This document shows, piece by piece, positions 57 to 18,021 of a DNA stretch of 26,890 nt. Every line of letters starts with the position of its first letter. Positions within the stretch are counted from its first letter, which is position 1. The DNA comes from an uncultured Clostridia bacterium (lineage in GTDB: Bacteria > Bacillota > Clostridia > Oscillospirales > Acutalibacteraceae), in contig CANQGN010000001.1 of NCBI GenBank assembly GCA_947623215.1, positions 1-26,890 on the forward strand, given 5' to 3'. The position numbers were made by a program, and so were the translations under genes. The notes below the pieces were generated by a model that was given only the letters and a program-made list of their open reading frames with translations, ran no database searches and was not told where the DNA came from.

Positions 57-575
57 CTCTCTGACAAAGAGCCGCTGGAGGATATAGCCGTATCGCACGT
101 GCGGGGCGGCTGCTCGTATTTGGCGGTACAGCTGGAGATAACGCCCTATTTGCGCACCGAACCGCGCTACCACACGCCGGACTATTTTGGCGCGGGCAAC
201 ATACGCCGGGTGCGGCTAAGCGATTTTTGCGTATATCACCGCCTGCTCTACGGCCTGCCGCGCGACAATTGGCAGGATTATTGCCGGGGCCGGTACGTAA
301 ACGGCCTCATTGATTTGGAGCACTCCATAGAAGATTTAACCATAGAGAATTTTAGGCGGGACGTTTCAAAAGACTGCTGGCCGGACATGCCCACGCTGCA
401 TATTGAAACCCTGCGCCAAAACCGCCTGACCTACCAGGCGGGAGCGGGCGGCGCCCTTTCGCTGAGCGGCGGAGGGCGGGAGCGACCCGCCGATTTTGCC
501 TATACCATGACCCCGAACGATACGCTGGATGCCTGGGGCAGTATAAAAGCCCTGCACTTCACCACCGAAGCATAA
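45..575 (+). pseudogene. 3' remnant of a gene cut by the MITE; possibly the C-terminus of a right-handed beta-helix (pectin-lyase fold/GH28-like) protein
   Basis: The TTG start lies inside the TIR, directly after an in-frame TGA, with no RBS. Spaced motifs DIAVSHV, NIRRVRL and SIEDLTIENF resemble beta-helix rungs (inference only). Confidence 0.45.
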
Positions 576-698
576 AGCGGCCCTGTACGCGGCGAACCGT
601 TCACAAAAATCGGTGCAGCGAGGGGAAAACGGTTTTATTGTTTCGGCATATCCAATTGACGAGACGATAGCATATAAGCTTATCAGGAGGTATAAGAA

Positions 699-1037
699 AT
701 GAACGGCGCAAAGAGAATTGTAAAAATTCAGCTCGATTATTTACAAGGTCCTATTTGGATTAGTGACATCGAAACCGGAGAATCTTTAATGGGCATTGAA
801 CTGATCGATCATGATCTTATATTAAAAGAACTCAATAGACAAGCTGGGCAGTTGTTTAGCTCATATTATGAGTTTAATTCTCACGATCAACCGTGTTGGT
901 TTAATCATGAGCAAGAGAAAAAAGATAAGGATATTATGCTTGAATTGATCCGAAAAATTGTTGCCCGGCTTGACGAGATCAATGACGGTTCGTTCATTGT
1001 GGAAGACTACGAAACGGAGCGACTGAACGGCTTATAA
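699..1037 (+). CDS. Small acidic hypothetical protein, immunity-protein-like (112 aa)
   Basis: AGGAGG RBS at 685-690, AT-rich, first gene of a coupled array with a toxin fragment. The immunity role is inferred from size and context. Confidence 0.6.
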   Translation: MNGAKRIVKIQLDYLQGPIWISDIETGESLMGIELIDHDLILKELNRQAGQLFSSYYEFNSHDQPCWFNHEQEKKDKDIMLELIRKIVARLDEINDGSFIVEDYETERLNGL

Positions 1038-1267
1038 TGCGATTTGCTGAACCGGTTGGGAATGAGCCAGTACGTTTGATTTCATGCGAAACAGGTAAAG
1101 AAGTAAACGGCTTTGCGCAAAATTTAGCAAATAAATTAGGTCGAAAAGTTACCGCACCAAGTGATACAGTTTGGATTCATCCAAATGGCAGAATTACTAT
1201 CGGACCTAACGCAAGAACAGATACTGGAAAATGGATTTCCTATTTTCCCAAGAAAACGAGGGAATGA
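1037..1267 (+). pseudogene. Orphan C-terminal fragment of a polymorphic-toxin cysteine-peptidase-like (C80/caspase-like) domain
   Basis: VRLISCETG...FAQNLANKLG.KV.AP.DTVWIHPNG matches the pattern seen at Rhs-type toxin C-termini. The upstream His-Gly half of the domain is missing. TAATG overlap with the previous gene. Confidence 0.55.
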
Positions 1268-1269
1268 TT

Positions 1270-1653
1270 ATGAACTTAATAAGTACTGGTTACTTTAGGG
1301 AAATGCCTGACGGTAGACCTGACGATTTGTCAATAAAAGATTTTATCAATAAGAATACTGATTACCCTATTGATAAAATATGCGCTTACTTGGATAGCGG
1401 ACTTCCCCTTATCGTCTCGCCCGGAGTTGTTCGGGATGTTATCGACGAAAGCAAAGGAAATGCAGGATCACCGTCTATTCTTACTGACGGAAAGTGGGCA
1501 TGGTCGGAAGCGTTATCGTATTATGTAAAGAATTATCACCTTTTGCTGAATTCGCATTTTCTAAATACAATGATAGAAAATGGTTGGAAGATTCCTATTC
1601 GTGAAAATGAACTGGATTATTCAACAATTTTTATTGACGGAGTTCCGCTTTGA
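1270..1653 (+). CDS. Putative immunity protein for the upstream toxin fragment
   Basis: GAGGGA RBS at 1258-1263 (alternative ATG at 1264 overlapping the previous stop). The YLDSG...DV...TDGKWAW...L.YYV.NY pattern is typical of small toxin-adjacent proteins. Confidence 0.6.
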   Translation: MNLISTGYFREMPDGRPDDLSIKDFINKNTDYPIDKICAYLDSGLPLIVSPGVVRDVIDESKGNAGSPSILTDGKWAWSEALSYYVKNYHLLLNSHFLNTMIENGWKIPIRENELDYSTIFIDGVPL

Positions 1654-1719
1654 TACCAAACTGATTGGTAAAAATGGTAATGAAATCAGTGCAAATGTCG
1701 TTGTTGTTATTCAAAAGGA
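1654..1719 (+). pseudogene. Short remnant of another toxin-like domain (TKLIGKNGNEISANVVVVIQKD), cut at the MITE left end
   Basis: Reads in the 1580-1801 frame and is AT-rich like the array. The resemblance to phage MuF-type toxin tails is from recall. Confidence 0.35.
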
Positions 1720-1996
1720 TAGGCAATACAATCAGGGTACAATGCGCCTGACGCGGCGCGATTTCCCGATAGGCTTTGTTGTCGGCCTTGAAATACGTTA
1801 GTATTCCTGCGGCCTGCCGCCTTGCAAAGTCAAAAAATCGCGCACGCGGCAGGTCGAAGATTTTTGGGGAGAGCGCCCGTCGATGACTGCTAGGCGTGCG
1901 CTTGCAGCCATACTTGCCGTATGGCAAAAGCACAGAACGAAGCAGGCGCGGCGGGCACTCCCCCAAAAACACGTTGTACCCTGATTGTATTGCCTA
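1720..1996. mobile_element. MITE-like non-autonomous element, 277 bp including flanking TA
   Basis: Perfect 23-bp inverted repeats TAGGCAATACAATCAGGGTACAA (1720-1742) / TTGTACCCTGATTGTATTGCCTA (1974-1996). No transposase. Internal stems 1813-1820/1846-1853 and a long imperfect hairpin 1861-1969. Confidence 0.8.
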
Positions 1997-2574
1997 CTCT
2001 CTGACAAAGAGCCGCTGGAGGATATAGCCGTATCGCACGTGCGGGGCGGCTGCTCGTATTTGGCGGTACAGCTGGAGATAACGCCCTATTTGCGCACCGA
2101 ACCGCGCTACCACACGCCGGACTATTTTGGCGCGGGCAACATACGCCGGGTGCGGCTAAGCGATTTTTGCGTATATCACCGCCTGCTCTACGGCCTGCCG
2201 CGCGACAATTGGCAGGATTATTGCCGGGGCCGGTACGTAAACGGCCTCATTGATTTGGAGCACTCCATAGAAGATTTAACCATAGAGAATTTTAGGCGGG
2301 ACGTTTCAAAAGACTGCTGGCCGGACATGCCCACGCTGCATATTGAAACCCTGCGCCAAAACCGCCTGACCTACCAGGCGGGAGCGGGCGGCGCCCTTTC
2401 GCTGAGCGGCGGAGGGCGGGAGCGACCCGCCGATTTTGCCTATACCATGACCCCGAACGATACGCTGGATGCCTGGGGCAGTATAAAAGCCCTGCACTTC
2501 ACCACCGAAGCATAAAGCGGCCCTGTACGCGGCGAACCGTTCACAAAAATCGGTGCAGCGAGGGGAAAACGGTT
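1941..2574. repeat. Direct repeat copy 2, identical to 1-634
   Basis: Exact match at offset 1940. Confidence 0.97.
1985..2515 (+). pseudogene. Second identical copy of the truncated 176-codon ORF
   Basis: Translation identical to 45-575; the start lies within the TIR. Confidence 0.45.
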
Positions 2575-2756
2575 GCAAGCAATCCTGCACAGCTTTGCTG
2601 ATTTGGAAGCGGCGTATGCCGATTACAAAGAAAGAGCAAACCCACTACACCAATACATGCAGCGGCAATGGAGCTTTGTCGCCGGGATAGCGGAACCTTT
2701 TTACGAAATGAAATGGGTTGAAACGTGAGGGGAATAGTATCTTGTGGCTTAGATGT

Positions 2757-2791
2757 GCCCGAAAACCCGCATGAATGCCGGGCTTTCGGGC
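2757..2791. other. Imperfect palindrome GCCCGAAAACCCG-CATGAATGC-CGGGCTTTCGGGC
   Basis: 12/13 arm match, at the left edge of the XRE-ImmA module. Function unknown (terminator or element-end motif). Confidence 0.5.
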
Positions 2792-2905
2792 GATTTATTT
2801 TTTTGGAATTATTTCGCAATATATGTTCGAAATATATCTCAGTAAAACAAAAATGCTTCGACTTTAACTCCTTCAAAAAATTGAGTAATTTTTTGGCAAT
2901 TAGAC

Positions 2906-2934
2906 TTGACAAACTGGCAATTATCTGATATATT
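2906..2934 (+). promoter_or_regulatory. Sigma-A promoter (extended -10) for XRE-ImmA with tandem operator-like repeats
   Basis: TTGACA 2906-2911, 17-bp spacer, TG-n-TATATT 2926-2934. TGGCAATTA is repeated at 2894-2902 and 2915-2923. Confidence 0.8.
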
Positions 2935-2978
2935 TATGGTTGGATACCAAAAATGATAGCGCTTTAAGGAGGATTACT

Positions 2979-3290
2979 ATGGGAAAGGATTTAGGTTTGC
3001 GAATATCTGAATCTTTGCAAAAACGCGGAATGACACAAAAAGAATTGGCTGGACGAATTGGACTAACAGAAGCTGTCATATCCAGATATATCTCCGGGGA
3101 TCGAGAACCAAAGCCCGATGTATTAGCGAATATTGCCACTGCCCTTCACACTACATCGGACTATTTACTCGGTATTGAAAGTGAAGCTTTCAATCATTCT
3201 AAAATCCGGCGTTTAATTGCAAGAAATGCTTCGTCAATGACCGAACAGGAAAAAAAAGAGTTGATTAATGCATTGTTTGGGGAGGAGTAA
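2979..3290 (+). CDS. XRE-family HTH transcriptional repressor (ImmR-like)
   Basis: AAGGAGG RBS at 2966-2972 favours ATG 2979. HTH signature MTQKELAGRIGLTEAVISRYISGDREP. Confidence 0.92.
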   Translation: MGKDLGLRISESLQKRGMTQKELAGRIGLTEAVISRYISGDREPKPDVLANIATALHTTSDYLLGIESEAFNHSKIRRLIARNASSMTEQEKKELINALFGEE

Positions 3291-3292
3291 AA

Positions 3293-3841
3293 TTGGGGAT
3301 TTCTATATCACATACACGATATGAAGAAATAAAGCAAATCGTAGTCAATTTGTTTGTTAAGTTCGGGGTTTGCTGCGTGCCGGTCAATGGGTTTGAACTG
3401 GCAACAAAAATGGGAGTTAAGATTGTTCCATACTCAGCAATTCCTGAAAGCAAGCAATGGCTTTTATTAAAAAAGAGCAACGACGGTTTTTCAGTGGAGA
3501 AAAATATGGGTGAATGGTACATTTACTATAACGATAGGAAAGATTATGGCCGAATCAACAATACCATTATGCATGAAATTGGTCATATTGTTTTGGATCA
3601 TAGTGAAGATAGTGAACTAGCTGAAAAGGAGGTTAATTTTTTTGCAAAGTACGCACTTGTTCCTCCTATCCTTGTTCATAAATTGAAAATAGACAACCCA
3701 ACAGATATAGCAGAAATCTTTGGCGTAAGCTTTGAGGCAGCTTGTTATGCACATTCCTACTATAAGAAGTGGCTACAGTATGGCTCGCCAAAGTATACAG
3801 ATTATGAGATCGTTCTGCTAAATCTGTTCGATGTTGCCTAA
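3293..3841 (+). CDS. ImmA/IrrE-family zinc metallopeptidase (DUF955)
   Basis: HEIGH (HExxH) followed by EKEVNFFA; lies directly downstream of an XRE gene. Confidence 0.92.
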   Translation: MGISISHTRYEEIKQIVVNLFVKFGVCCVPVNGFELATKMGVKIVPYSAIPESKQWLLLKKSNDGFSVEKNMGEWYIYYNDRKDYGRINNTIMHEIGHIVLDHSEDSELAEKEVNFFAKYALVPPILVHKLKIDNPTDIAEIFGVSFEAACYAHSYYKKWLQYGSPKYTDYEIVLLNLFDVA

Positions 3842-3875
3842 TAAAAGGAAGGTGATGAAAATTGATTGTTTTTTA

Positions 3876-3923
3876 GAAAAAGAAAAACGCCTTACAAATT
3901 GTTAGCAGCAATTTATAAAGCGC
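3876..3923 (-). terminator. Putative intrinsic terminator on the minus (antisense) strand
   Basis: On the minus strand a ~15-bp stem (two mismatches of the plus-strand fold become G-U pairs) is followed by TTTTTCTTTTT. Confidence 0.6.
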
Positions 3924-3924
3924 A

Positions 3925-3989
3925 TTTCTTCGGATGCGAGCATCCTATTAAGTGGTACTAATATTATGCCACATCCGAGGAAGTTTTTC
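3925..3989 (+). terminator. Putative plus-strand terminator/attenuator hairpin
   Basis: TTCTTCGGATG (3926-3936) pairs with CATCCGAGGAA (3972-3982) with one G-U, plus inner GCAT/ATGC and TATTA/TAATA pairs, followed by T6. Confidence 0.5.
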
Positions 3990-4035
3990 AAGAGATTTTT
4001 AAAAAAATATTAACTTTATAGGAGAGCATAATATT

Positions 4036-4704
4036 ATGTCTAAAGTAAATTGCACTCGAAGTGGGTGCAAAGACGTTTTTCACGCATTTTTAGTAAAAAA
4101 TGCGCAGTTCGACGCCGATCTTGAAATTCCCCGAATCGATCCCGAAAGCGCCCTGCCCGAGCGGCTCGTCTCTTTCTCGAAAGCGGTTATGGGAAGCGAC
4201 TACGATCAGTGGGTACATTTTTACGAGGACGATGCCAACTTTGAACGCTTGTGGAACAAGCCGAACAAGTATCTGCCAATCCTCCAAAAGTACAAGGGTG
4301 TTATCACCCCGGATTTCAGTTTGTACCGTGATATGCCGCTCGTGATGCAGCAGTGGAACACATACCGAAGCCGGGCAATCGGTCATTGGCTGCAGGAAAA
4401 CGGCGTTCCGGTCATCGTAAATGTTCGGTGGAGTGACGAACGCACCTACGACCTTTGCTGTGCGGGCGTTCCAAGAAAAAGCACCATCGCAGTCGGCTCA
4501 CACGGTTGTGTCAAGCTCGTCCGTGAACGGGAGTTCTTCAAGCAAGGACTTGACTATACGGTAAAGAAACTCCGACCGCAGACGATTCTCGTTTACGGTA
4601 CCGCTCCGGATGCCATTTTTGACGAGTACCGTAAAGCGGGAATTCGTATCATTCAGTTTGACAGCGACTATATGATCGCTCACCGAAAGGCGGTGAACGT
4701 TTAA
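4036..4704 (+). CDS. DUF4417 domain-containing protein
   Basis: Motifs VHFYEDD..FER.WN.P, ITPDFSLYRDMP..MQ.WN.YRSRAIG...Q.NG..VI.NVRW and IAVGSHG...ILVYG, recognised as DUF4417 from recall. GGAG RBS. Confidence 0.85.
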   Translation: MSKVNCTRSGCKDVFHAFLVKNAQFDADLEIPRIDPESALPERLVSFSKAVMGSDYDQWVHFYEDDANFERLWNKPNKYLPILQKYKGVITPDFSLYRDMPLVMQQWNTYRSRAIGHWLQENGVPVIVNVRWSDERTYDLCCAGVPRKSTIAVGSHGCVKLVREREFFKQGLDYTVKKLRPQTILVYGTAPDAIFDEYRKAGIRIIQFDSDYMIAHRKAVNV

Positions 4705-5078
4705 TGGGGACTGGATTTCATGGAGGATTTGGAAACGGTACGAAAGGTGCTCAACAGCAGAGTGAAGAAAAACAATCCTTACCTAAAAACGATGCCCAGA
4801 TTAAACATATTTTCTCCGGAAAAGACGGGCACCTAACCGACACACCTGCTAATCGAAAGTTGCTTACTAATCTTGCAAACGATAGTAGTAAGTTTATTGG
4901 GAAAGACAAATACGGAAATTCTTGGAACGCAGAATTAAATAATGATGGTTCTCAAAGCTGGGTCAGGTACCAAAATGGAACAATCAACGAGGGCGGCAGA
5001 AATACATCTCCACGACCTTGGAACAGTGAAACAGGCTTAAACAACAACCCTGTAAAACGGAGGAGAAAGATGAAATGA
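4704..5078 (+). CDS. Small putative toxin: Gly-rich leader (MGTGFHGGFGNGTKG) plus polymorphic-toxin-like C-terminal domain
   Basis: TAATG coupling to DUF4417. The pattern KHIF..KDGHL.DTPANRKLL...AN...G.DKYGN.W...DGSQ.WV...NG.I..GG.N..PR.WN..TG resembles toxin tips of Rhs/haemagglutinin proteins (recall). Confidence 0.65.
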   Translation: MGTGFHGGFGNGTKGAQQQSEEKQSLPKNDAQIKHIFSGKDGHLTDTPANRKLLTNLANDSSKFIGKDKYGNSWNAELNNDGSQSWVRYQNGTINEGGRNTSPRPWNSETGLNNNPVKRRRKMK

Positions 5079-5413
5079 ATCAATTCGAATTATACTGTAT
5101 GATTTTTTATGTTCTTGATGCAGAGTGGGATGAAACGCATAACTCTGAACTTGGGGAATTTTTAAGCAGTGCTAACCCATTTTTGTTTACCGATATCGGT
5201 TCTGCTAATCCAACTGTTTACCTTCGTTTTTGCGAAGCGATCACTTCGCCAATCACGATTGAAAACAGCTATGGGATTGCTGTAAAATATGTAGCTTCGC
5301 TGGAGAATGCAGCGGTCAGCAAAGCGTTTGCAAGCATTGACGAAACGGAATGGCTGGCGTGCGTAAAAGATTATCTCTCCGGCGAACATAAGGGAAGTGA
5401 CTTGCCGGACTGA
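5075..5413 (+). CDS. Putative cognate immunity protein (112 aa, acidic)
   Basis: ATGA overlap with the toxin gene, last gene of the operon, no catalytic motif seen. Confidence 0.6.
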   Translation: MNQFELYCMIFYVLDAEWDETHNSELGEFLSSANPFLFTDIGSANPTVYLRFCEAITSPITIENSYGIAVKYVASLENAAVSKAFASIDETEWLACVKDYLSGEHKGSDLPD

Positions 5414-5525
5414 ATTGTAAAATGCAAACCACTCGGCACCACTCATTTTGCGATAATTGCAATGCTTTTCGCCATAGAAAATCGGATGAAGAAAATAACA
5501 CAAAGAAAAGCTGGTGTAAAAGCGC

Positions 5526-5554
5526 TTGTTTTTGCGGCAACTTGAAGCTATAAT
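5526..5554 (+). promoter_or_regulatory. Sigma-A promoter of the xylose operon
   Basis: TTGTTT 5526-5531, 17 bp, TATAAT 5549-5554. Confidence 0.65.
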
Positions 5555-10935: not shown

Positions 10936-11133
10936 TTGGTCTCATACGACAAATTGTGGAAAAAGCTCATCGACTGTAAAATGAAAAAGAAGGACTTAAA
11001 AAACGCGGCGGGGGTCGGTTCTACCACCATGTCGAAATTGACGAACAACGAACCCGTCTCCATGTCGGTAATGATTAAAATCTGTCTTGCCCTGCAATGC
11101 AACATTGGCGAGATAATGGACGTTGTATTATGA
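10936..11133 (+). CDS. Cro/C1-type HTH protein (controller-like) heading the R-M operon
   Basis: GAGGTG RBS favours TTG 10936. VSYDKLWKKLID..MKK.DL...AGVG.TTMSKL...E.VSM....KIC.AL.C.IG.IM is the HTH_26-like pattern. Confidence 0.85.
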   Translation: MVSYDKLWKKLIDCKMKKKDLKNAAGVGSTTMSKLTNNEPVSMSVMIKICLALQCNIGEIMDVVL

Positions 11134-12197
11134 GCTGTACTACGCTGAAGTGCCTTTCCCTTTTTTCCGGCGCGGGAATCGGCGAAACGTATTTTCGGGA
11201 TATTGGCGTCGACGTTGTCGTCGCCAACGAATTACTCGAGCGCAGAGCGAACTTATATCAAGCCGTTCACCCGGAAACAACCGTCGTTTGCGGTGATATT
11301 ACGGACGAATCCGTTTTTCAGCAAATCGTGCGTTCCTGCCCCCCAAAAGTCGATTTTCTTTTAGCATCGCCGCCCTGCCAGGGCATGAGCGTGGCGGGGA
11401 AAAACCGTTGCCAAAAAACCATGGAGTCGGACAAGCGCAACTATTTAATCACCTACGTGGTAAAGGCGATTCAATTGACCGACCCCACCTACGTGCTGAT
11501 TGAAAACGTTCCCGCTCTTTTAAAATTACAATTGGCGTATGACGCAAAATACCGAACGGTGCTTGAAATATTGCAGCACGAATTCGGCGACGACTACGTC
11601 ATCGACAGCGACGTTGTAGATTCGGCCGACTACGGCGTTCCCCAAACAAGGCTGAGAGCGATTATTAAAATGCACAAGCCCGGAACCGTATGGAATTGGC
11701 CCCCCAAAAAGGCGGAAAAGATAACGGTTGAACAGGCCATAGGGCATTTGCCCTCTTTAGAAGCGGGTGAAAAGTCGGATATTCGGTGGCATTTTGCGCG
11801 TAACCACACAAAAGAAAACGTCTTGTGGATGAAGCACACGCCTACGGGGCAATCCGCTTTTTCCAATCCGGTCTACTATCCTCAAAAAAAAGACGGAACG
11901 CGCATAAAAGGATACAATTCCTCCTATCGCAGAATGCGGTGGGACGCGCCCGCGCCGACCATTACCATACGAAACGACTGCATTGCTTCTCAACGAAACG
12001 TGCACCCCGGCAGGCTGCTGCCCGACGGCACCTATTCCGACGCCCGCGTATTAACCCCCCTGGAATTGATGCTGCTCGACTCGCTGCCCGCCAACTGGAA
12101 CATTCCGGACGATACGCCCGAATTGTTAATCAGGCAATGTATAGGCGAGTCGATTCCGCCGCTTATGCTCAAAGAAATGGTAAGAGGGATTTTATAA
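11130..12197 (+). CDS. DNA (cytosine-5) methyltransferase 1, M1.HgaI-like
   Basis: Motifs I (LFSGAGIG), IV (SPPCQG), VI (ENV), VIII (QTRLR). ATGA overlap with the HTH gene sets the start at 11130. HgaI similarity is from recall. Confidence 0.93.
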   Translation: MSCTTLKCLSLFSGAGIGETYFRDIGVDVVVANELLERRANLYQAVHPETTVVCGDITDESVFQQIVRSCPPKVDFLLASPPCQGMSVAGKNRCQKTMESDKRNYLITYVVKAIQLTDPTYVLIENVPALLKLQLAYDAKYRTVLEILQHEFGDDYVIDSDVVDSADYGVPQTRLRAIIKMHKPGTVWNWPPKKAEKITVEQAIGHLPSLEAGEKSDIRWHFARNHTKENVLWMKHTPTGQSAFSNPVYYPQKKDGTRIKGYNSSYRRMRWDAPAPTITIRNDCIASQRNVHPGRLLPDGTYSDARVLTPLELMLLDSLPANWNIPDDTPELLIRQCIGESIPPLMLKEMVRGIL

Positions 12198-13261
12198 TGG
12201 ACGCAATAAAGGCGATTTCTCTTTTTTCCAGCGCCGGAATAGGCGAGCTGCTGCTGAACAATGCGAACGTACAGGTGGTAGCCGCCAACGAGCTTTTGCC
12301 CAAGCGGGCGGAATGCTACTCGCATTTTTTCCCCGATGCGGCCATGTACTGCGGCGATATTAGGGCAAACGAAACGCAGGAGCAGATTGTTGCGGCGGCA
12401 AAACAAACCGGCGCTAAACTGTTGATTGCGACGCCCCCCTGCCAGGGCCTGAGCACGCTGGGAAAAAACAAAAAACAAATCCATTACCAAAAAGACAAAC
12501 GAAATTATCTTATTCTTTCGGCGTTGGATATTGTAGACCGCTGCGACTTTGATTACGTTTTAATTGAAAACGTTCCGACCTTTTTGGATATGGTATTTCC
12601 CTATGCCGACGATACCTTTCGGCTGGAAGAAATTTTAAAACAAAAATATTCAACACGATACGTCATTGAAGCAAGAGTATTAAACGCAAAGGATTACGGT
12701 ATTTGTCAATCTCGCCCCCGCGCAATCGTTAAGATGTATAAGCCAAACAAAAAATGGCCGTGGCCGTCGGAGGAACCGGAAATCACGCTGCGGGAAGCTA
12801 TCGGGTCTTTGCCGTCTTTGGAATCGGGCGAATCGTCGGATATTCCCTGGCATTTTGCAAAGCGGCACAACGAACGCGCCGTTTTGGCTCTTAAACATAC
12901 CCCAACGGGCAAAAGCGCGATTGCAAACGAAGTATATTACCCTAAAAAAGAAGACGGAACGCGAATTAAAGGATTTCATAATACCTTTAAACGAATGGAC
13001 TGGGATCAGCCCTGCCCCGCCAGAACAACCTTTAGCGGCAGCATGAGTTCGCACAACAACGTGCATCCAGGGCGGTTGCTGCCGGACGGAACCTATTCCG
13101 ACGCGAGAGTTCTTACTTTGCTGGAGACGTTTATCGTCTCGTCCATCCCGCAGGATATTGATTTCCCGGACGGTTCGACCGATACCTTCATCAGAACGGT
13201 CATCGGCGAGTCAATTCCGCCCAAGCTGATGATGAAGGTACTGGAAACCATAGGAAAGTAG
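12197..13261 (+). CDS. DNA (cytosine-5) methyltransferase 2, M2.HgaI-like
   Basis: LFSSAGIG, TPPCQG, ENV, QSRPR. Paralogous to MTase 1 (shared NVHPGRLLPDGTYSDARVLT). True start 12197 by TAATG overlap. Confidence 0.93.
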   Translation: MDAIKAISLFSSAGIGELLLNNANVQVVAANELLPKRAECYSHFFPDAAMYCGDIRANETQEQIVAAAKQTGAKLLIATPPCQGLSTLGKNKKQIHYQKDKRNYLILSALDIVDRCDFDYVLIENVPTFLDMVFPYADDTFRLEEILKQKYSTRYVIEARVLNAKDYGICQSRPRAIVKMYKPNKKWPWPSEEPEITLREAIGSLPSLESGESSDIPWHFAKRHNERAVLALKHTPTGKSAIANEVYYPKKEDGTRIKGFHNTFKRMDWDQPCPARTTFSGSMSSHNNVHPGRLLPDGTYSDARVLTLLETFIVSSIPQDIDFPDGSTDTFIRTVIGESIPPKLMMKVLETIGK

Positions 13262-13269
13262 GCGACGTT

Positions 13270-14730
13270 ATGCCGAGAACGGTAGAAAGAGATAAATGGA
13301 TTTTATACAAGCATACTTCAAGCTATGAACTCATAAAAGCCGTTGCATTGGACGTAAAAAACAGCTGCCAAGCGGATATTTCGGAAGCAGAACGCGAAAG
13401 AATGCAGGAGCGGCTGGCCGCCCTGAATCTTTACAAAGCCAGAAACCCCGACAAAAAGCCGCTTGATTCGATCGACCACAGAATCAATACGTTAGAGTTC
13501 TATATGTTTGGATATGAAGACGACGCGGCGGGCAAGCGGTTTATCTTCAGCCCGCTGGGCAATTTGTTTTTAAAGCATATCAACAACGAGGATAATCTGA
13601 GAAAAATATTTACAACCATGCTCTACGCCGTGCAGTTTCAACACCCGGCAAGCGGAACCGACAAGCGGTTTCAGCTCTATCCCTTTCGGCTCATTTTTCA
13701 ATTGCTGACGGACGAGCGGTTAAACGGAAGGCTGTATTATTCCGAATACGCATTGCTTGTCGCTTTTGTTCGTTCTATTAACGACGAGCAGTATGAAGAA
13801 TTGGTTAAAAAAATACTGGAATTAAGAGAAAAGTCCGATGAAGAAATTGCAAAGCTCTATCAAGAGGACGAGCACGCCTACGTAAACGCCGTTTACGAAT
13901 GGGAGTATTACGCCTGCAAGCTATTGTCTTCCGTCGGCATTTTAGACCGAACGAAAGGCGACCCCATTTGCAAGCTGTATCACCCCGCAAAGCCGGGCAG
14001 CCGCAGCAAGCCGACCGGCCGAACCGCAAGAAACGGCTACGTTTCGTTAAACAATGCCGTAAAAGAGTTTGTGCAATTGCTGTTAAACAGATATTCTTAT
14101 GCGCAGCCCCCGTTAAAGTTAGACGATCCCGAAAGAATGACGTTAGACGTTGTAAAAGAAATCTACAGCTTTTATCCGCCGGAGTTAATGAACGAAATCG
14201 GCGAAACCGTCGCGCTGTCGTCGTTGTTAGAGCTGCCGAAGCTGATTGAAAAATACGCAAACAACCCCGACAACGAGACCGCTTATTTGTTTGAAGAAGT
14301 GCTGGACGAGGGCTTTCGCATGTTTTATAACGTAGAAACCAAACGAATAGGCGGCGCGGGGCATACGGATATTGAGTGTTTGTACTTGCCAAAACGGAAG
14401 AAATTTGCCGTTGAATCCAAGTCTACCGCAAACAAGCTAAGCGGCATAAACGTCGGCAGACTGCGGGAACACCGGGAAGAAATCGGCGGCGCGTATACCA
14501 TTGTTATTACGCCGCGCTACGTACCCGCAGCCAAAAGGGATATAAAAGGAGCTCCCATTGTCATTATTTTGGCAAGCACCTTTGCCGAATATCTTTACAA
14601 CCATATTTTTCACGACGTAAGAGAAGTAGATTACGCTGACTTTGACGATATCATCACGGAACATCTCGGCGAGGACGTAAGCAAATTGATTTCCGACAAA
14701 ACGATGGCAAAATTTGCGACGAATAATTAG
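13270..14730 (+). CDS. Type IIS restriction endonuclease, HgaI-like (486 aa)
   Basis: Follows two m5C MTases, the layout for asymmetric sites. C-terminal TDIECL...AVESKS is a PD-(D/E)XK-type motif. Confidence 0.75.
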   Translation: MPRTVERDKWILYKHTSSYELIKAVALDVKNSCQADISEAERERMQERLAALNLYKARNPDKKPLDSIDHRINTLEFYMFGYEDDAAGKRFIFSPLGNLFLKHINNEDNLRKIFTTMLYAVQFQHPASGTDKRFQLYPFRLIFQLLTDERLNGRLYYSEYALLVAFVRSINDEQYEELVKKILELREKSDEEIAKLYQEDEHAYVNAVYEWEYYACKLLSSVGILDRTKGDPICKLYHPAKPGSRSKPTGRTARNGYVSLNNAVKEFVQLLLNRYSYAQPPLKLDDPERMTLDVVKEIYSFYPPELMNEIGETVALSSLLELPKLIEKYANNPDNETAYLFEEVLDEGFRMFYNVETKRIGGAGHTDIECLYLPKRKKFAVESKSTANKLSGINVGRLREHREEIGGAYTIVITPRYVPAAKRDIKGAPIVIILASTFAEYLYNHIFHDVREVDYADFDDIITEHLGEDVSKLISDKTMAKFATNN

Positions 14731-14732
14731 AT

Positions 14733-15143
14733 ATGGCTGATGTATTTGACGCGCAAAAACGCTCCGCCATTATGCGCAGCATCCGCTCGAAAAACAATAA
14801 AACAACCGAACTGGCGCTTATAAAATGGTTGAAAGCTAACGGCATAACCGGCTGGCGGCGAAACTATCCCGTAAAAGGGCGCCCGGATTTTGTGTTTCAC
14901 AAGCAAAAAACGGCGGTTTTTGTAGACGGTTGCTTTTGGCACGGCCACGATTGCAGAAATACGCATCCTTCCGACCATTCCGAATATTGGCAAAAAAAGC
15001 GCGAATGGAATATGTTGCATGATAAAGAAGTGACGGCATATTTTAAAAATCGCGGCTGGACGGTCATTCGCGTGTGGGAATGCGAATTAAAAAACAAAAA
15101 CCGGGCCATTCTTGCTGAAAAACTGCGCCCGTTGCTAAAATGA
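14733..15143 (+). CDS. vsr: Very short patch repair endonuclease
   Basis: MADVF...KRS.IMRSIRSK, PDFVF, FVDGCFWHGH, GW.VIRVWEC; adjacent to m5C MTases. Confidence 0.93.
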   Translation: MADVFDAQKRSAIMRSIRSKNNKTTELALIKWLKANGITGWRRNYPVKGRPDFVFHKQKTAVFVDGCFWHGHDCRNTHPSDHSEYWQKKREWNMLHDKEVTAYFKNRGWTVIRVWECELKNKNRAILAEKLRPLLK

Positions 15144-15266
15144 CTACGTTAAAAAATTGAAAAGCGGATGCAACCGAAACCTTTGCACGCTCCATTCAAA
15201 AAGAAAACGGCGCATGGCGGTTAGCGGACAACGTCTACTGATTTGCGACTTACCCTACAAAATGGA

Positions 15267-15304
15267 AAAACAGCTGCCGGGGGCGGTAATCCGGCAGCTG
15301 TTTT
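15267..15304. terminator. Bidirectional intrinsic terminator
   Basis: Perfect 14-bp arms AAAACAGCTGCCGG / CCGGCAGCTGTTTT between convergent genes. Confidence 0.85.
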
Positions 15305-15332
15305 GTTTGTCTTTATCTTTCTTTATCTATCT

Positions 15333-16208
15333 TTATTTGTCGCAGCGGCCGCAGTCGGAGCAGCCGTTGCAAATGGGTTTGCTGCCGCAGCGGGCGCAAT
15401 TTTGCCGAAAATGCGGCCGGTAAAGGGCTTCTTCCGGTATGGCCAAGCCAAAGCGGTCGGTCAACTTCCAGACTACCGGCCGACCCGCGTAGTACATGCC
15501 GGATTTATAGGCCATTTCGCTTTGTATTTGCTTATTTGGCAAATCATACCGCTTGCCGTCTTTTACAAACACGCTGCCCGTCTCTATAAAACAAAAGGTC
15601 ACGTTGTGCGCCGCGCATTCCGCCCGCAGGGCCGTTACCCAGTCAAAATGGCAGGGCCTTGCGCCGTCGTAATTCTCGCCGCCGCAAACCACCTGCTCTA
15701 TCTGCCCGCTCGCGAGGTATGGTTCTATGCTGACCGGCCCGAGAAAGGGGGCGCACATGACACCTTTATGCTTAAAGGGCAATTCCAGCAGCAGGGGAAT
15801 GCGCTCGTCTGCCCGGCGCTGGTTTTCGCAGGTAACGTTGAAGGCAATATTCTCCCACCCGTCGCCCCAGTCGGGCGGCAGGCAGTCTTTTACCCGCTGG
15901 GGGCGTTTGGTGAGCAAAAAGAATTTTACGTCGCTACGCTGCCGCATCATCTCCCAGGCGTCCGGCCGCCACTCGTCCGCCTCTTCCAAAAAGAAGTCGG
16001 AGGTCATGCAAACGCGAATCATCTCGCCGCTTTGGATTTTGTAACCGCCGCCCCGTTTTTTTTGCAGGGGGTAGGTAAAGCCGGCCCTGGTTTTGTAAAT
16101 ATCGGCGCCGTTTCGCTCGCGCTGCCGGTCGAGAAAATACATGTAGCAGTGCCGGCAGCCCTCGCTGCACTTTACGCAGCCGTGCCAGGGGTTCCAAATA
16201 TCGTGCAT
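15333..16208 (-). CDS. DUF5131 / phage Gp37-Gp68 family, radical-SAM-like protein
   Basis: WNPWHGC.KCSEGC.HCY (contains CxxxCxxC), LLTKRP, WV-like VVCGGE, extra C-terminal CxxC....CxxCxxCxxC. Start placed at MHDIWN, with a GAGG RBS. Confidence 0.85.
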   Translation of the reverse strand: MHDIWNPWHGCVKCSEGCRHCYMYFLDRQRERNGADIYKTRAGFTYPLQKKRGGGYKIQSGEMIRVCMTSDFFLEEADEWRPDAWEMMRQRSDVKFFLLTKRPQRVKDCLPPDWGDGWENIAFNVTCENQRRADERIPLLLELPFKHKGVMCAPFLGPVSIEPYLASGQIEQVVCGGENYDGARPCHFDWVTALRAECAAHNVTFCFIETGSVFVKDGKRYDLPNKQIQSEMAYKSGMYYAGRPVVWKLTDRFGLAIPEEALYRPHFRQNCARCGSKPICNGCSDCGRCDK

Positions 16209-16281
16209 GTTGCTCGCCTCGCTTGCCGCCAACCCGGAATAAATGCCGCCCAACCGGCGGGTTTTCCCTTTTTCCCCTTCC

Positions 16282-16310
16282 ATTATACCGATTTTCCCCC
16301 GCCGCGCAAG
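16282..16310 (-). promoter_or_regulatory. Sigma-A promoter for DUF5131
   Basis: Minus strand TTGCGC, 17 bp, TATAAT. Confidence 0.65.
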
Positions 16311-16328
16311 GCTTTTTTAAAAATGGTA

Positions 16329-16357
16329 TTGCTATTGTTCGCGATTTAGAATATAAT
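16329..16357 (+). promoter_or_regulatory. Sigma-A promoter for the HTH-Dam operon
   Basis: TTGCTA 16329-16334, 17 bp, TATAAT 16352-16357. Confidence 0.75.
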
Positions 16358-16387
16358 AGAACCATATCACAGCCGGAGGTGCGCCGA

Positions 16388-17458
16388 ATGGAGTTTATGT
16401 CTGCCAAAGAAGCCGCGGAAAAATGGGGCGTTTCGCCACGGCGGGTGGCCCTGCTTTGCGCCGAGCGCCGCATTGCCGAGGCGGCGCTGGTGGGGCACAC
16501 GTGGGTGCTGCCCGTTACGGCAAAAAAGCCGCCGGACGGGCGAATGACCCGCTATGCCCAGCCAACTGGCAAAACCGTAAGGCCCTTTTTAAAATGGGCG
16601 GGCGGCAAAGGGCAGCTGCTGCCCGAACTGGAAAAATACTACCCCTTTGCGGCCGGTAAAATAACCAAATACGCCGAACCCTTTGTGGGCGGCGGGGCGG
16701 TGCTGTTTGATATACTGGGTCGCTTTGACCTGGAGGCGGTCTACATTAGCGACGTCAACGCCCGGCTGATAAACGCCTACCGCATGGTACGGGACGAATC
16801 AAACGCGTTAATTCAGCTGCTCGCCGGGTATGAAGCCGACTATCTGCCGCTGGATGCGGAGGGGAGACGGCGCTATTATACCGAAAAGCGCGACCAGTTT
16901 AACCGACCGGCGGAAGCAGGCGAAAAAAACGCCGCCCTAACGCAGGCCGCCCTGATGATTTTTTTAAACAAAACCTGCTTTAACGGCCTCTACCGGGTAA
17001 ACCGAAAAGGGCAGTTTAACGTGCCCATTGGTTCTTACAAAGCCCCGTTGATTTGCGACGAGGCCAACCTGCGGGCGGCGGCGGAAAAGCTGAAAAACGT
17101 GCAAATGGTGCAGGGGGACTACAAGCGTTCCGCCGCATTCATCGACCGCCGCACCTTTGTCTATTTTGACCCGCCCTATCGGCCGATTACCCAAACCGCC
17201 TGCTTTACCGCCTATACCGAAAGCGCCTTTGGCGACGCCAAGCAGCGGGAGCTGGCGGCCTTTGTCAATGAGCTGAGCGGGCGGGGCGCCAAAATTGTGG
17301 TGAGCAATTCTGACCCGCAAAACGCAGACGAATCCGACCGCTTTTTTGAGGAACTGTACGCGGGGCACACCATCTGCCGCGTGAGCGCCAACCGCATGAT
17401 AAACAGCAACAGCAGGGCACGCGGCAAAATTAACGAACTGATTATATCCAACTTTTAA
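16388..17458 (+). CDS. Dam/DpnM-family N6-adenine methyltransferase with N-terminal MerR/excisionase-type HTH
   Basis: GGAGGT RBS. N-terminus MSAKEAAEKWGVSPRRV.LLC...RI...W.LP, then KWAGGK, EPFVGGGAV, FNGLYRVN.KG.FNVP.G, DPPY. Confidence 0.9.
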   Translation: MEFMSAKEAAEKWGVSPRRVALLCAERRIAEAALVGHTWVLPVTAKKPPDGRMTRYAQPTGKTVRPFLKWAGGKGQLLPELEKYYPFAAGKITKYAEPFVGGGAVLFDILGRFDLEAVYISDVNARLINAYRMVRDESNALIQLLAGYEADYLPLDAEGRRRYYTEKRDQFNRPAEAGEKNAALTQAALMIFLNKTCFNGLYRVNRKGQFNVPIGSYKAPLICDEANLRAAAEKLKNVQMVQGDYKRSAAFIDRRTFVYFDPPYRPITQTACFTAYTESAFGDAKQRELAAFVNELSGRGAKIVVSNSDPQNADESDRFFEELYAGHTICRVSANRMINSNSRARGKINELIISNF

Positions 17459-17472
17459 GGAGAGGAAGCAGC

Positions 17473-18021
17473 ATGATAAAGGGAGGAAAAGGTGGCGGCA
17501 ATACCAAAACCGGCCTTGCGTTTGAGGGAAAAACCGACCTGGCGAGCTTTTTAAAGCGGCAAAAAGGGTACGAGGTGCGGGGCGACAAAGTATTTTACAA
17601 CAACGAGCAGGTGGCGCGCGTTTTTAAAAAGCACGGATTTTATGATTTCTTGGAAGAATTGGGCATCGACTGGACCAAATGTATTTCCAAACAGCTTTTT
17701 CCCGACCATTGCCTGTACGTTGTGACCCACAACACGCTGTTTGTAATTGAATGTAAGTTTCAGCAGGTCAGGGGGTCGGTAGACGAAAAGCTGCAAACCT
17801 GTGATTTTAAGAAAAAGCAATATCAAAAGCTCCTTGCCCCGGCCAATATAGACGTGGAGTACGTATATTTGCTCAGCAACTGGTTTCGGGACGAAAGCTA
17901 CAAAGACGTGCTCGACTACATCATCAGCGTGCGGTGCCAGTATTACTTTGAGTATATTCCGCTTGCCAAATTTGGGCTGCCCGTTCCCCCCGCCGGGGGA
18001 GAGCGGCCGACCGAACGGTGA
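17473..18021 (+). CDS. PD-(D/E)XK nuclease, probable cognate type II restriction endonuclease
   Basis: FPD...IECKFQ catalytic-type motif; 14 nt downstream of the MTase with an AAGGAG RBS. Confidence 0.7.
   Translation: MIKGGKGGGNTKTGLAFEGKTDLASFLKRQKGYEVRGDKVFYNNEQVARVFKKHGFYDFLEELGIDWTKCISKQLFPDHCLYVVTHNTLFVIECKFQQVRGSVDEKLQTCDFKKKQYQKLLAPANIDVEYVYLLSNWFRDESYKDVLDYIISVRCQYYFEYIPLAKFGLPVPPAGGERPTER

Follow-up and report, generated by a model that had tools for sequence, protein, structure and literature searches.

The DNA under study, called the window below, is the whole 26,890 nt stretch at positions 1 to 26,890 (forward strand) of contig CANQGN010000001.1 (GenBank assembly GCA_947623215.1), from an uncultured Clostridia bacterium of the family Acutalibacteraceae. 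At 4036-5413 it carries a DUF4417 gene followed by genes for a small basic and a small acidic protein, and these three genes form a genuine polymorphic toxin-immunity cassette, of a type whose constant module is apparently undescribed. The evolutionary anatomy of the cassette, read from sequence comparison, is well supported: a constant N-terminal part, diverse tails, a co-varying downstream gene, a toxin domain shared with other toxins and orphan genes nearby were all found. We regard it as probable that the cassette was acquired horizontally, is fronted by a repressor-protease switch and encodes a DUF4417 protein that acts in trans on the Gly-rich leader of the toxin. The window itself has an ordinary intact member of this class, which is widespread among gut bacteria and phages, with a T4/I4 tip (the toxin and immunity types defined below) plus two orphan relics. 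The cassette is made up as follows:

4036-4704, + strand: open reading frame (ORF) 1, DUF4417, 222 aa, the constant partner gene (PF14386, E 1.8e-74).
4704-4748, + strand: Gly-rich leader of 15 codons, MGTGFHGGFGNGTKG, at the start of ORF2.
4704-5078, + strand: ORF2, predicted leader-tagged toxin of tail type T4, 124 aa, isoelectric point (pI) 9.99; toxin domain at residues ~21-115.
5075-5413, + strand: ORF3, predicted cognate immunity protein of type I4, 112 aa, pI 4.16, assigned by co-variation with T4 toxins.

The stop codon of ORF1 and the start codon of ORF2 share the sequence TAATG at 4702-4706, and ORF2 and ORF3 share ATGA at 5075-5078; the three translationally coupled genes described in a first-pass annotation agree with these data in coordinates, overlaps and basic or acidic character. 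ORF1 matched PF14386 with 249.7 bits (cutoff 28.9) over profile positions 2-182 of 183, and also matched the C-terminal half of phrog_940. ORF2 and ORF3 gave no credible match in Pfam, NCBIfam, PHROG or PADLOC, which leaves ORF2 without a recognised Rhs, LXG, WXG or MuF domain, as had been noted from the translation; its N terminus is not hydrophobic by inspection (no dedicated signal-peptide predictor was used). ORF3 had no Pfam or PDB relative, and sequence searches of structure databases with the three proteins and two profiles returned nothing credible (best matches: R.HinP1I, E 0.78; NDUFA12, 0.028; designed Pizza proteins, 0.18; Spo0A, 0.21).

The arrangement is far beyond chance: it recurs in three unrelated chromosomal contexts, and the TAATG overlap and the leader occur together in 69 of 72 loci. 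A set of 5.8 billion proteins yielded 132 homologues of ORF2 (80-198 aa), which share the leader, a variable linker and the conserved domain on alignment. Three of these homologues lie on long contigs, each time in the order DUF4417, ORF2 homologue and an ORF of ~105 aa, within wholly different chromosomal neighbourhoods with housekeeping flanks; the XRE/M78 gene pair described below is also present at one. DUF4417 itself is patchily distributed (10 of 401 genomes sampled across the phylum), and was found in 51 of 399 class-sampled genomes, at up to three matching places per genome; 421 DUF4417 loci were confirmed in a collection of species-representative genomes. For the comparison of leaders and tails, the two ORFs after DUF4417 were extracted from the 80 best genome loci (DUF4417 62-95% identical to that of the window) and from other loci in hand. 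The 80 loci are biased to the DUF4417 clade of the window because a closer alignment was used for the contig scan. Those with a complete second ORF, 72 in all, are referred to as close loci; tails and third genes were clustered over 85 loci by all-against-all BLAST. Among 28 further loci from the class sample, 18 have the same overlap and an ORF with an MG start, many with a PT-TG-like stretch (by eye) between leader and toxin. The suggestion that DUF4417 genes are followed by short ORFs with MG..G starts and variable tails thus holds in the loci examined.

The leader is the constant element of the second gene. Its consensus across the close loci is MGxG[FIY]HGGFGxTxG, with M1, G2, G4, G7, F9 and G10 invariant in 72/72 and H6, G8, T12 and G14 nearly so, and in pairs of loci with different tails it is 73% identical, against 7% for residues 16-60. 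The second ORF overlaps DUF4417 by TAATG in 69 of these loci. The invariant glycines are encoded by each of the four Gly codons, so that selection acts on the leader peptide and the leader is no mere tract of DNA homology. The place of the swap can be seen in a comparison with locus L021, whose DUF4417 is 95% identical to that of the window and whose tail differs: the DNA is near-identical up to the ATG, matches at 11-12/15 bases through +45 and is random beyond, which places the swap breakpoint at the end of the leader. In the ORF2 model residues 1-20 are disordered (predicted local distance difference test, pLDDT, below 50), and the source genome (1.46 Mb, 90% complete) contains no other copy of the leader.

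The leader type tracks the DUF4417 clade. At 60% or more DUF4417 identity to the window it reads MGAG[FIY]HGGFGxTxG, at about 50% MGxGxxGNFGNTKG, and at 30-43% MGGRG[AS], MGTRGSSS or MGGRSGSSG. Two leader-tagged ORFs accompany one DUF4417 gene at L106 (6775-7218) and L110 (5626-6249, 7932-8393); at L110 the second lies beyond the gene of the terminase large subunit (TerL). At some loci (L116, L135, L136) no leader ORF follows DUF4417.

Behind this leader the close loci carry 12 unrelated tail types. Over the 85 loci, 18 tail clusters and 19 third-gene clusters pair nearly one-to-one (T1-I1 at 18 loci, T2-I2 at 13, T3-I3 at 12, T4-I4 at six and T7-I5 at five). The main exceptions concern T5, with third genes that fall into clusters I6 and I8, and T6, for which the third genes (180 aa) were joined to cluster I1. 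Several tails are domains already recognised in polymorphic toxins: T18 is Ntox50 (E 1.2e-27), T1 is DUF6883 with a DUF4926 immunity protein, and Tox-PL1/Gln_amidase is also among the tail domains. The first-pass annotation had asked for a conserved leader with a variable C-terminal domain at DUF4417 loci, and for a third gene that co-varies with the tail; the former was found in the 72 close loci, the latter in the almost one-to-one correspondence of clusters.

The tail of the window is itself used elsewhere. The ORF2 domain (residues ~20-120) was found in 1130 proteins in a search of 1.84 billion representatives, and lies at the extreme C terminus of most longer carriers. Ten large carriers were tested, four of which have Rhs repeats and one PT-HINT, and the smaller carriers include more PT-HINT and Rhs fragments; the domain is C-terminal in the Rhs-repeat proteins P0147, P0162, P0256 and P0178 and in the PT-HINT proteins P0195 and P0166. 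The impression that the C-terminal pattern of ORF2 occurs at the tips of large polymorphic toxins was therefore correct. An I4-type profile matched the genes directly downstream of two Rhs toxins and one PT-HINT toxin with T4 tips (18.7, 15.9 and 6.4 bits), with a shared L-G-x-x-L-S ... S-A-D-P region; the weakest match, at one Rhs locus, is marginal (E 0.002 in a four-sequence database). Hence unrelated delivery architectures use the same toxin-immunity pair, which is the standard argument for an immunity role. Within the DUF4417 cassettes an I4 gene follows the T4-type toxin in six of seven loci, the seventh locus being cut. Leader and tail identities, pairing, breakpoint and the Rhs/PT-HINT tips together bear out the part of the earlier proposal that saw a minimal polymorphic toxin system with swappable tips.

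The predicted toxin is probably of the nuclease type. The AlphaFold model of ORF2 (pLDDT 81.7 overall, above 89 over residues 21-110) contains a compact domain built from two helices and a sheet of four strands, and H35, G42, H43, G66, D68, W74, G82, W86 and G98 are invariant in 59 sequences. Language-model look-alikes in the Atlas, which serve as leads only, are clusters of Colicin_D, Ntox35, EndoU and Ntox50 (0.82-0.88); colicin D, EndoU and Ntox50 belong to the BECR-fold RNase toxins. Kinship with Ntox50 was also suggested by a shared Q-x-K-H-I motif; an hhalign probability of 0.2% rules against it.

Upstream of the cassette, three adjacent ORFs at 699-1653 are relics of two other cassette types:

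699-1037, + strand: orphan immunity gene I3, 112 aa, intact (full-length identity of 70-73% with the third genes of L029 and L055).
1037-1267, + strand: 3' end of a decayed T5-type toxin gene, which encodes the last 66 residues and lacks a leader (79% identity with the L089 toxin over residues 85-150 of the latter).
1270-1653, + strand: orphan gene for an I6 immunity protein of 127 aa, the partner of the T5 remnant (full-length match to the L089 third gene, 68.5% identity).

The I3 type follows T3-type toxins in 12 of the 12 loci that carry it. Intact orphan immunity beside a truncated toxin argues that the toxins come from outside, that is, from neighbouring cells. The region from ~500 to 5550 has a G+C content of 35-48%, except for a high-GC repeat copy near 2000-2500, and is flanked by DNA of ~58-64%; because its G+C content is below that of the flanks, the islet is regarded as acquired. 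The low-GC orphan array is bordered by two identical 176-aa frames (45-575 and 1985-2515) in high-GC DNA; the exact direct repeat that holds them may have arisen by recent duplication or may be an artefact of the assembly. G+C content is lowered again (44-57%) at 11000-17500, 6 kb downstream of the cassette. The sequencing runs that contain the window sequence are DNA runs of rabbit gut metagenomes; a search that was not limited to RNA gave no RNA run. At other loci, a gene for a large serine recombinase (Pfam-confirmed; L105:6981-8702) adjoins the cassette, and in L030, L037 and L056 inspection by eye showed resolvase-like ORFs nearby; such genes may be a route by which the islets move.

The cassette is preceded by a gene pair in the same orientation and by a promoter-like site:

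2906-2934, + strand: promoter-like site, TTGACA, 17 nt, TATATT, with TG; 11/12 consensus, pattern match only.
2940-3290, + strand: XRE-family helix-turn-helix (HTH) repressor, CapH/ImmR-like, 116 aa (HTH_3, E 1.1e-13; capH, E 3e-13).
3293-3841, + strand: ImmA/IrrE-type M78 metallopeptidase, CapP-like, 182 aa (Peptidase_M78, E 2e-11; capP, E 1.1e-9; phrog_87 metallo-protease, E 2.6e-16).

This is the CapH/CapP arrangement, with XRE HTH and M78 genes directly upstream of the operon and PADLOC matches to both. Close homologues of the pair lie directly upstream of DUF4417 in ~40 of 90 loci; at six of nine other loci inspected, a different HTH gene and a ~175-aa gene occupy that position. CapH/CapP pairs derepress operons after DNA damage (bioRxiv 10.1101/2022.04.27.489752), and by analogy the cassette is probably induced in the same way. 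ORF3 gave no HTH, RHH or AbrB match in Pfam or NCBIfam, as would mark a type II antitoxin, and the pair appears to owe its regulation to the separate XRE gene. Between the peptidase gene and DUF4417 there is a gap of 195 bp (3842-4035), with a minus-strand hairpin that resembles a terminator (3923-3887) and, on either strand, weak promoter-like sites.

Such a switch could also belong to an intracellular abortive-infection or addiction module, whose toxin never leaves the cell: phage infection or DNA damage would be sensed by the XRE/ImmA switch or by DUF4417, and the toxin would be released from its immunity protein to kill or arrest its own host. In favour of this, the PADLOC models matched by the regulator pair, capH and capP, are those of regulators of anti-phage operons; neither an export signal nor export machinery was detected; and the compact, mobile cassette occurs in variable contexts, sometimes near restriction-modification genes (HsdR in L004). 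The three core genes themselves, however, have no PADLOC match, and both the toxin domain and the immunity domain are shared with Rhs and PT-HINT toxins, which are exported. Tip exchange and intact orphan immunity beside a decayed toxin are hallmarks of conflict between cells, and the toxin and immunity genes are coupled translationally with no sign of a labile DNA-binding antitoxin. On balance this alternative is unlikely.

A connection to phages emerged from distant DUF4417 proteins. The domain is present in 504 phage records, 385 of them from mycobacteriophages, including gene 1 of L5, and stands at the left genome end in the cluster A mycobacteriophages Equemioh13 and L5. In Equemioh13 the gene after DUF4417 starts MGGRGGKGGPGP, carries Tox-PL1/Gln_amidase and is followed by a 104-aa ORF. 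In this record (L101, 642-2627) the gene annotated as 'VIP2 protein' is DUF4417, and Pfam assigns Gln_amidase (papain-fold toxin 1) and not an ADP-ribosyltransferase domain to the gene annotated as 'VIP2-like toxin'; of the 'VIP2-like' toxins of cluster A phages, a paper on Microbacterium phages says only that their role is unclear. In L5 an MGGRGSKGG frame opens directly after the gp1 stop and reads MGGRGSKGGPGPGTG... for >100 codons (L018, Z18946, 1080-1400). The annotation places the start of gp2 at 1305, in a different frame from this leader-like ORF; an overlooked frameshift or a wrongly assigned start of a leader-tagged protein may be present in the old record.

Similar neighbourhoods occur in other phages and in prophage-like loci. 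A Christensenellales phage has, after DUF4417, a gene that starts MGTRGSSS and whose tail has the look of an ADP-ribosyltransferase (R, S-x-S, E-x-E; by eye, no Pfam match). Clostridia prophage-like loci encode ParB-DUF4417 or DUF4417, with an MGGRG ORF, just upstream of the terminase small subunit (TerS) in L010 or TerL in L110, and Streptococcus pneumoniae phage IPP52 has DUF4417 two genes before TerL. PHROGs confirmed TerS in L010 and TerL in L110; Pfam confirmed neither of these by-eye calls. The presumed TerS of L110 and of IPP52 matched only phrog_2412, whose function is unassigned; phrog_2412 (L019:4552-5022, L110:3575-3925) occupies the slot just upstream of TerL, where the small terminase subunit is expected. 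DUF4417 has the same placement in a published gene table of Streptococcus pyogenes phage A25 (PMC8066415). ParB-DUF4417 fusions with a ParB-CTPase domain have been reported in phages, their function being given as unknown. These neighbourhoods hint at a packaging-linked origin of the cassette.

The DUF4417 protein looks like an enzyme of a TIM-barrel-like class, with no particular reaction to be named. Its AlphaFold2 model is confident (pLDDT 89.4, predicted template modelling score, pTM, 0.85) and consists of repeated beta/alpha units. P32, F62, D66, D93, G144 and G157 are invariant in 28 diverse DUF4417 sequences and S95 and N108 nearly so, as is Q105 in two overlapping alignments; on the secondary-structure map D66, D93, S95, Q105 and N108 sit just after strands or early in the next helix. 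No obvious signal peptide or membrane segment was seen by eye, and the sequence has no solved relative. Foldseek against the PDB gave weak TIM-barrel-like matches only (best E 4e-3, template modelling score, TM, <=0.43), with no TGT among the 50 best matches listed. Against BFVD the best matches outside the family were phage proteins of the TGT/DpdA type, which are marginal (E 3e-3 to 2e-2, TM 0.40-0.51). Assignment as a TGT/DpdA transglycosylase was rejected by hhalign against 27 bacterial TGTs (probability 0.05%).

These data bear on a second alternative, in which DUF4417 is an independent phage enzyme acting on nucleic acids, for instance in DNA modification or packaging, beside which toxin pairs merely insert; the leader would then serve recombination and translational coupling as a landing pad and would not be a recognition tag. 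Fusion to ParB-CTPase domains in phages, a place among packaging genes, the TIM-barrel-like fold with its marginal TGT/DpdA-type viral matches (E 3e-3, TM 0.4-0.5) and the loci without a leader ORF (L116, L135, L136) would fit. A landing pad accounts poorly for invariant leader residues that are kept through synonymous codon changes and for a leader type that shifts with the DUF4417 clade. Moreover, the pairing persists in chromosomal islets without other phage genes, the TGT profile comparison was negative, and cluster labels in the Atlas show, at cluster level only, fusions of DUF4417 with a ribonuclease domain, with CPCC and with a fold that matches a small T4-type toxin model. We consider this alternative quite unlikely. 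The preferred reading, that DUF4417 acts in trans with leader-tagged proteins, is what clade tracking of the leader, loci with several leaders, phage context and fusion labels point to. The idea in the first-pass annotation that DUF4417 may recognise, modify or process the leader would fit the clade tracking and the fusion labels.

On that reading the following sequence of events is proposed. The XRE/M78 pair, like CapH/CapP or ImmR/ImmA, would switch on the operon after DNA damage, and the TAATG and ATGA overlaps would ensure that the three proteins are made together. The immunity protein would neutralise the toxin inside the producer, and the cytoplasmic, enzyme-like alpha/beta protein DUF4417 would act in trans on the leader by binding or processing it or by loading the toxin for export. 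The export route would probably be phage-derived, because distant DUF4417 genes and toxins with MGGRG leaders adjoin phage terminase genes. The toxin, a probable nuclease-type enzyme, would use H35, H43 and D68. Beyond this proposal, the sequence comparisons show that recombination just after the leader exchanges the C-terminal killing domain.

A more specific version holds that DUF4417 and the leader form an unrecognised phage-derived delivery route, in which DUF4417, fused in phages to a ParB CTPase domain, reads the leader as a loading tag and places small toxins in phage or phage-like particles or on packaged DNA, to be injected into other cells; we rate this as improbable. Its corollary for the chromosomal islets, that under their DNA-damage switch they load toxin into co-induced prophage particles and so kill competitors that lack immunity, is taken jointly with it and is equally doubtful. 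Far less probable still is a colicin-style toxin that is released in the SOS response and escapes when a co-resident prophage lyses the cell, with DUF4417 as a chaperone or stabiliser only. The DNA-damage-type switch would suit it, as would a small basic toxin with an acidic immunity protein, as in nuclease colicin domains and their immunity proteins, and the TerL-like gene found at another place in the genome hints at a prophage. But no region for receptor binding or translocation exists in so small a protein (124 aa), and the conservation of DUF4417 from gut Clostridia to mycobacteriophages, beside packaging genes, would be left without explanation.

Several points weigh against the proposed action of DUF4417 on an exported toxin. 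No known trafficking domain was detected (Pfam, NCBIfam, PHROG, PADLOC), the flanks inspected contain no secretion genes, and the toxin, at 124 aa, has no room for receptor-binding or translocation domains. The source genome has no WXG100 match and only one TerL-like gene (G000 contig C54:7512-8114), which is unlinked to the window in the assembly. The whole case for an enzyme consists of the conserved Asp, Ser, Gln and Asn residues and the beta/alpha architecture of a predicted fold without a solved match. Foldseek of the toxin model against the PDB gave nothing significant; the best match was Cami1 (E 0.5), which we take to be RelE-like. The fusions of DUF4417 to toxins are known only from cluster labels; none was found among T4-bearing proteins of 250-312 aa (which have PT-HINT or Rhs fragments or nothing known) or among the 28 further class-level loci. 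Some of the 80 genome loci are close kin, so that the counts are not of independent events. Finally, toxicity, neutralisation, binding or processing of the leader and export are predicted from sequences and models alone.

If the proposal is correct, DUF4417, a widespread domain, gains its first functional context; a full-text literature search on DUF4417 and PF14386 found no toxin context in the passages returned. The architecture would be new among polymorphic toxins, with the constant part shrunk to a 15-residue tag and a separate partner protein, and it brings with it many unnamed toxin and immunity families (18 tail clusters in ~85 loci; among the clusters scanned, no more than three have a Pfam family match). 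The short tag and its dedicated partner could also serve as a portable tool for tests of protein loading or export in Gram-positive gut bacteria. Since cluster A mycobacteriophages (Mycobacterium smegmatis) and streptococcal prophages carry the module, the question of delivery is directly testable.

Among known systems, the internal proteins of bacteriophage T4, such as Alt, offer a parallel: small effectors encoded with head and packaging genes carry a short N-terminal tag that targets them to the capsid. Those tags are removed by the prohead protease and are unlike the DUF4417-linked leader in sequence, and we know of no DUF4417 equivalent in capsid targeting of this phage.

The regulatory pair resembles CapH/CapP and ImmR/ImmA (bioRxiv 10.1101/2022.04.27.489752) and Xre-COG2856 (PMC2701414), in which an XRE HTH gene and then an M78 Zn-peptidase gene stand upstream of the operon that they control. 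The operon controlled here differs in that it is neither a known defence system nor the core of a mobile element, and the switch here is a predicted one. The S8-PTS systems of Gram-positive bacteria (PMC9424270) likewise combine an accessory enzyme with a polymorphic toxin of constant N terminus and an immunity protein. Their toxins have a signal peptide and BetaH and their accessory protein is a subtilase, none of which was found here by Pfam; the accessory protein of the present cassette is an unrelated cytoplasmic alpha/beta protein, and the abstract and outline of that paper show no DUF4417-type system.

MuF phage-head toxins (PMC3482391, PMC5576092) are similar in being phage-borne, in their link to a packaging or head module, in their use of Tox-PL1 and Ntox50 and in the small immunity ORF downstream; delivery by packaging into capsids is proposed, not shown. 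No MuF domain occurs in the three proteins of the window, and text searches of PMC5576092 brought up no DUF4417-type system. Where DUF4417 is found in phages, it lies beside the terminase and not after the portal; the toxin is a separate small leader-tagged protein, and many copies of the cassette are chromosomal islets without phage genes.

The closest likeness is to the polymorphic toxin systems surveyed in PMC3482391, with their constant N terminus, recombining C-terminal toxins, downstream cognate immunity genes and orphan cassettes, and with toxin domains common to different delivery types (Rhs, PT-HINT, Ntox50, Tox-PL1). No passage on DUF4417 or a Gly-rich leader was among those that text searches of that survey brought up, and a full-text search for DUF4417 did not return it. 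Those systems differ from the present one, which has no known trafficking domain or secretion system and in which the constant part is a 15-residue leader together with a separate DUF4417 gene.

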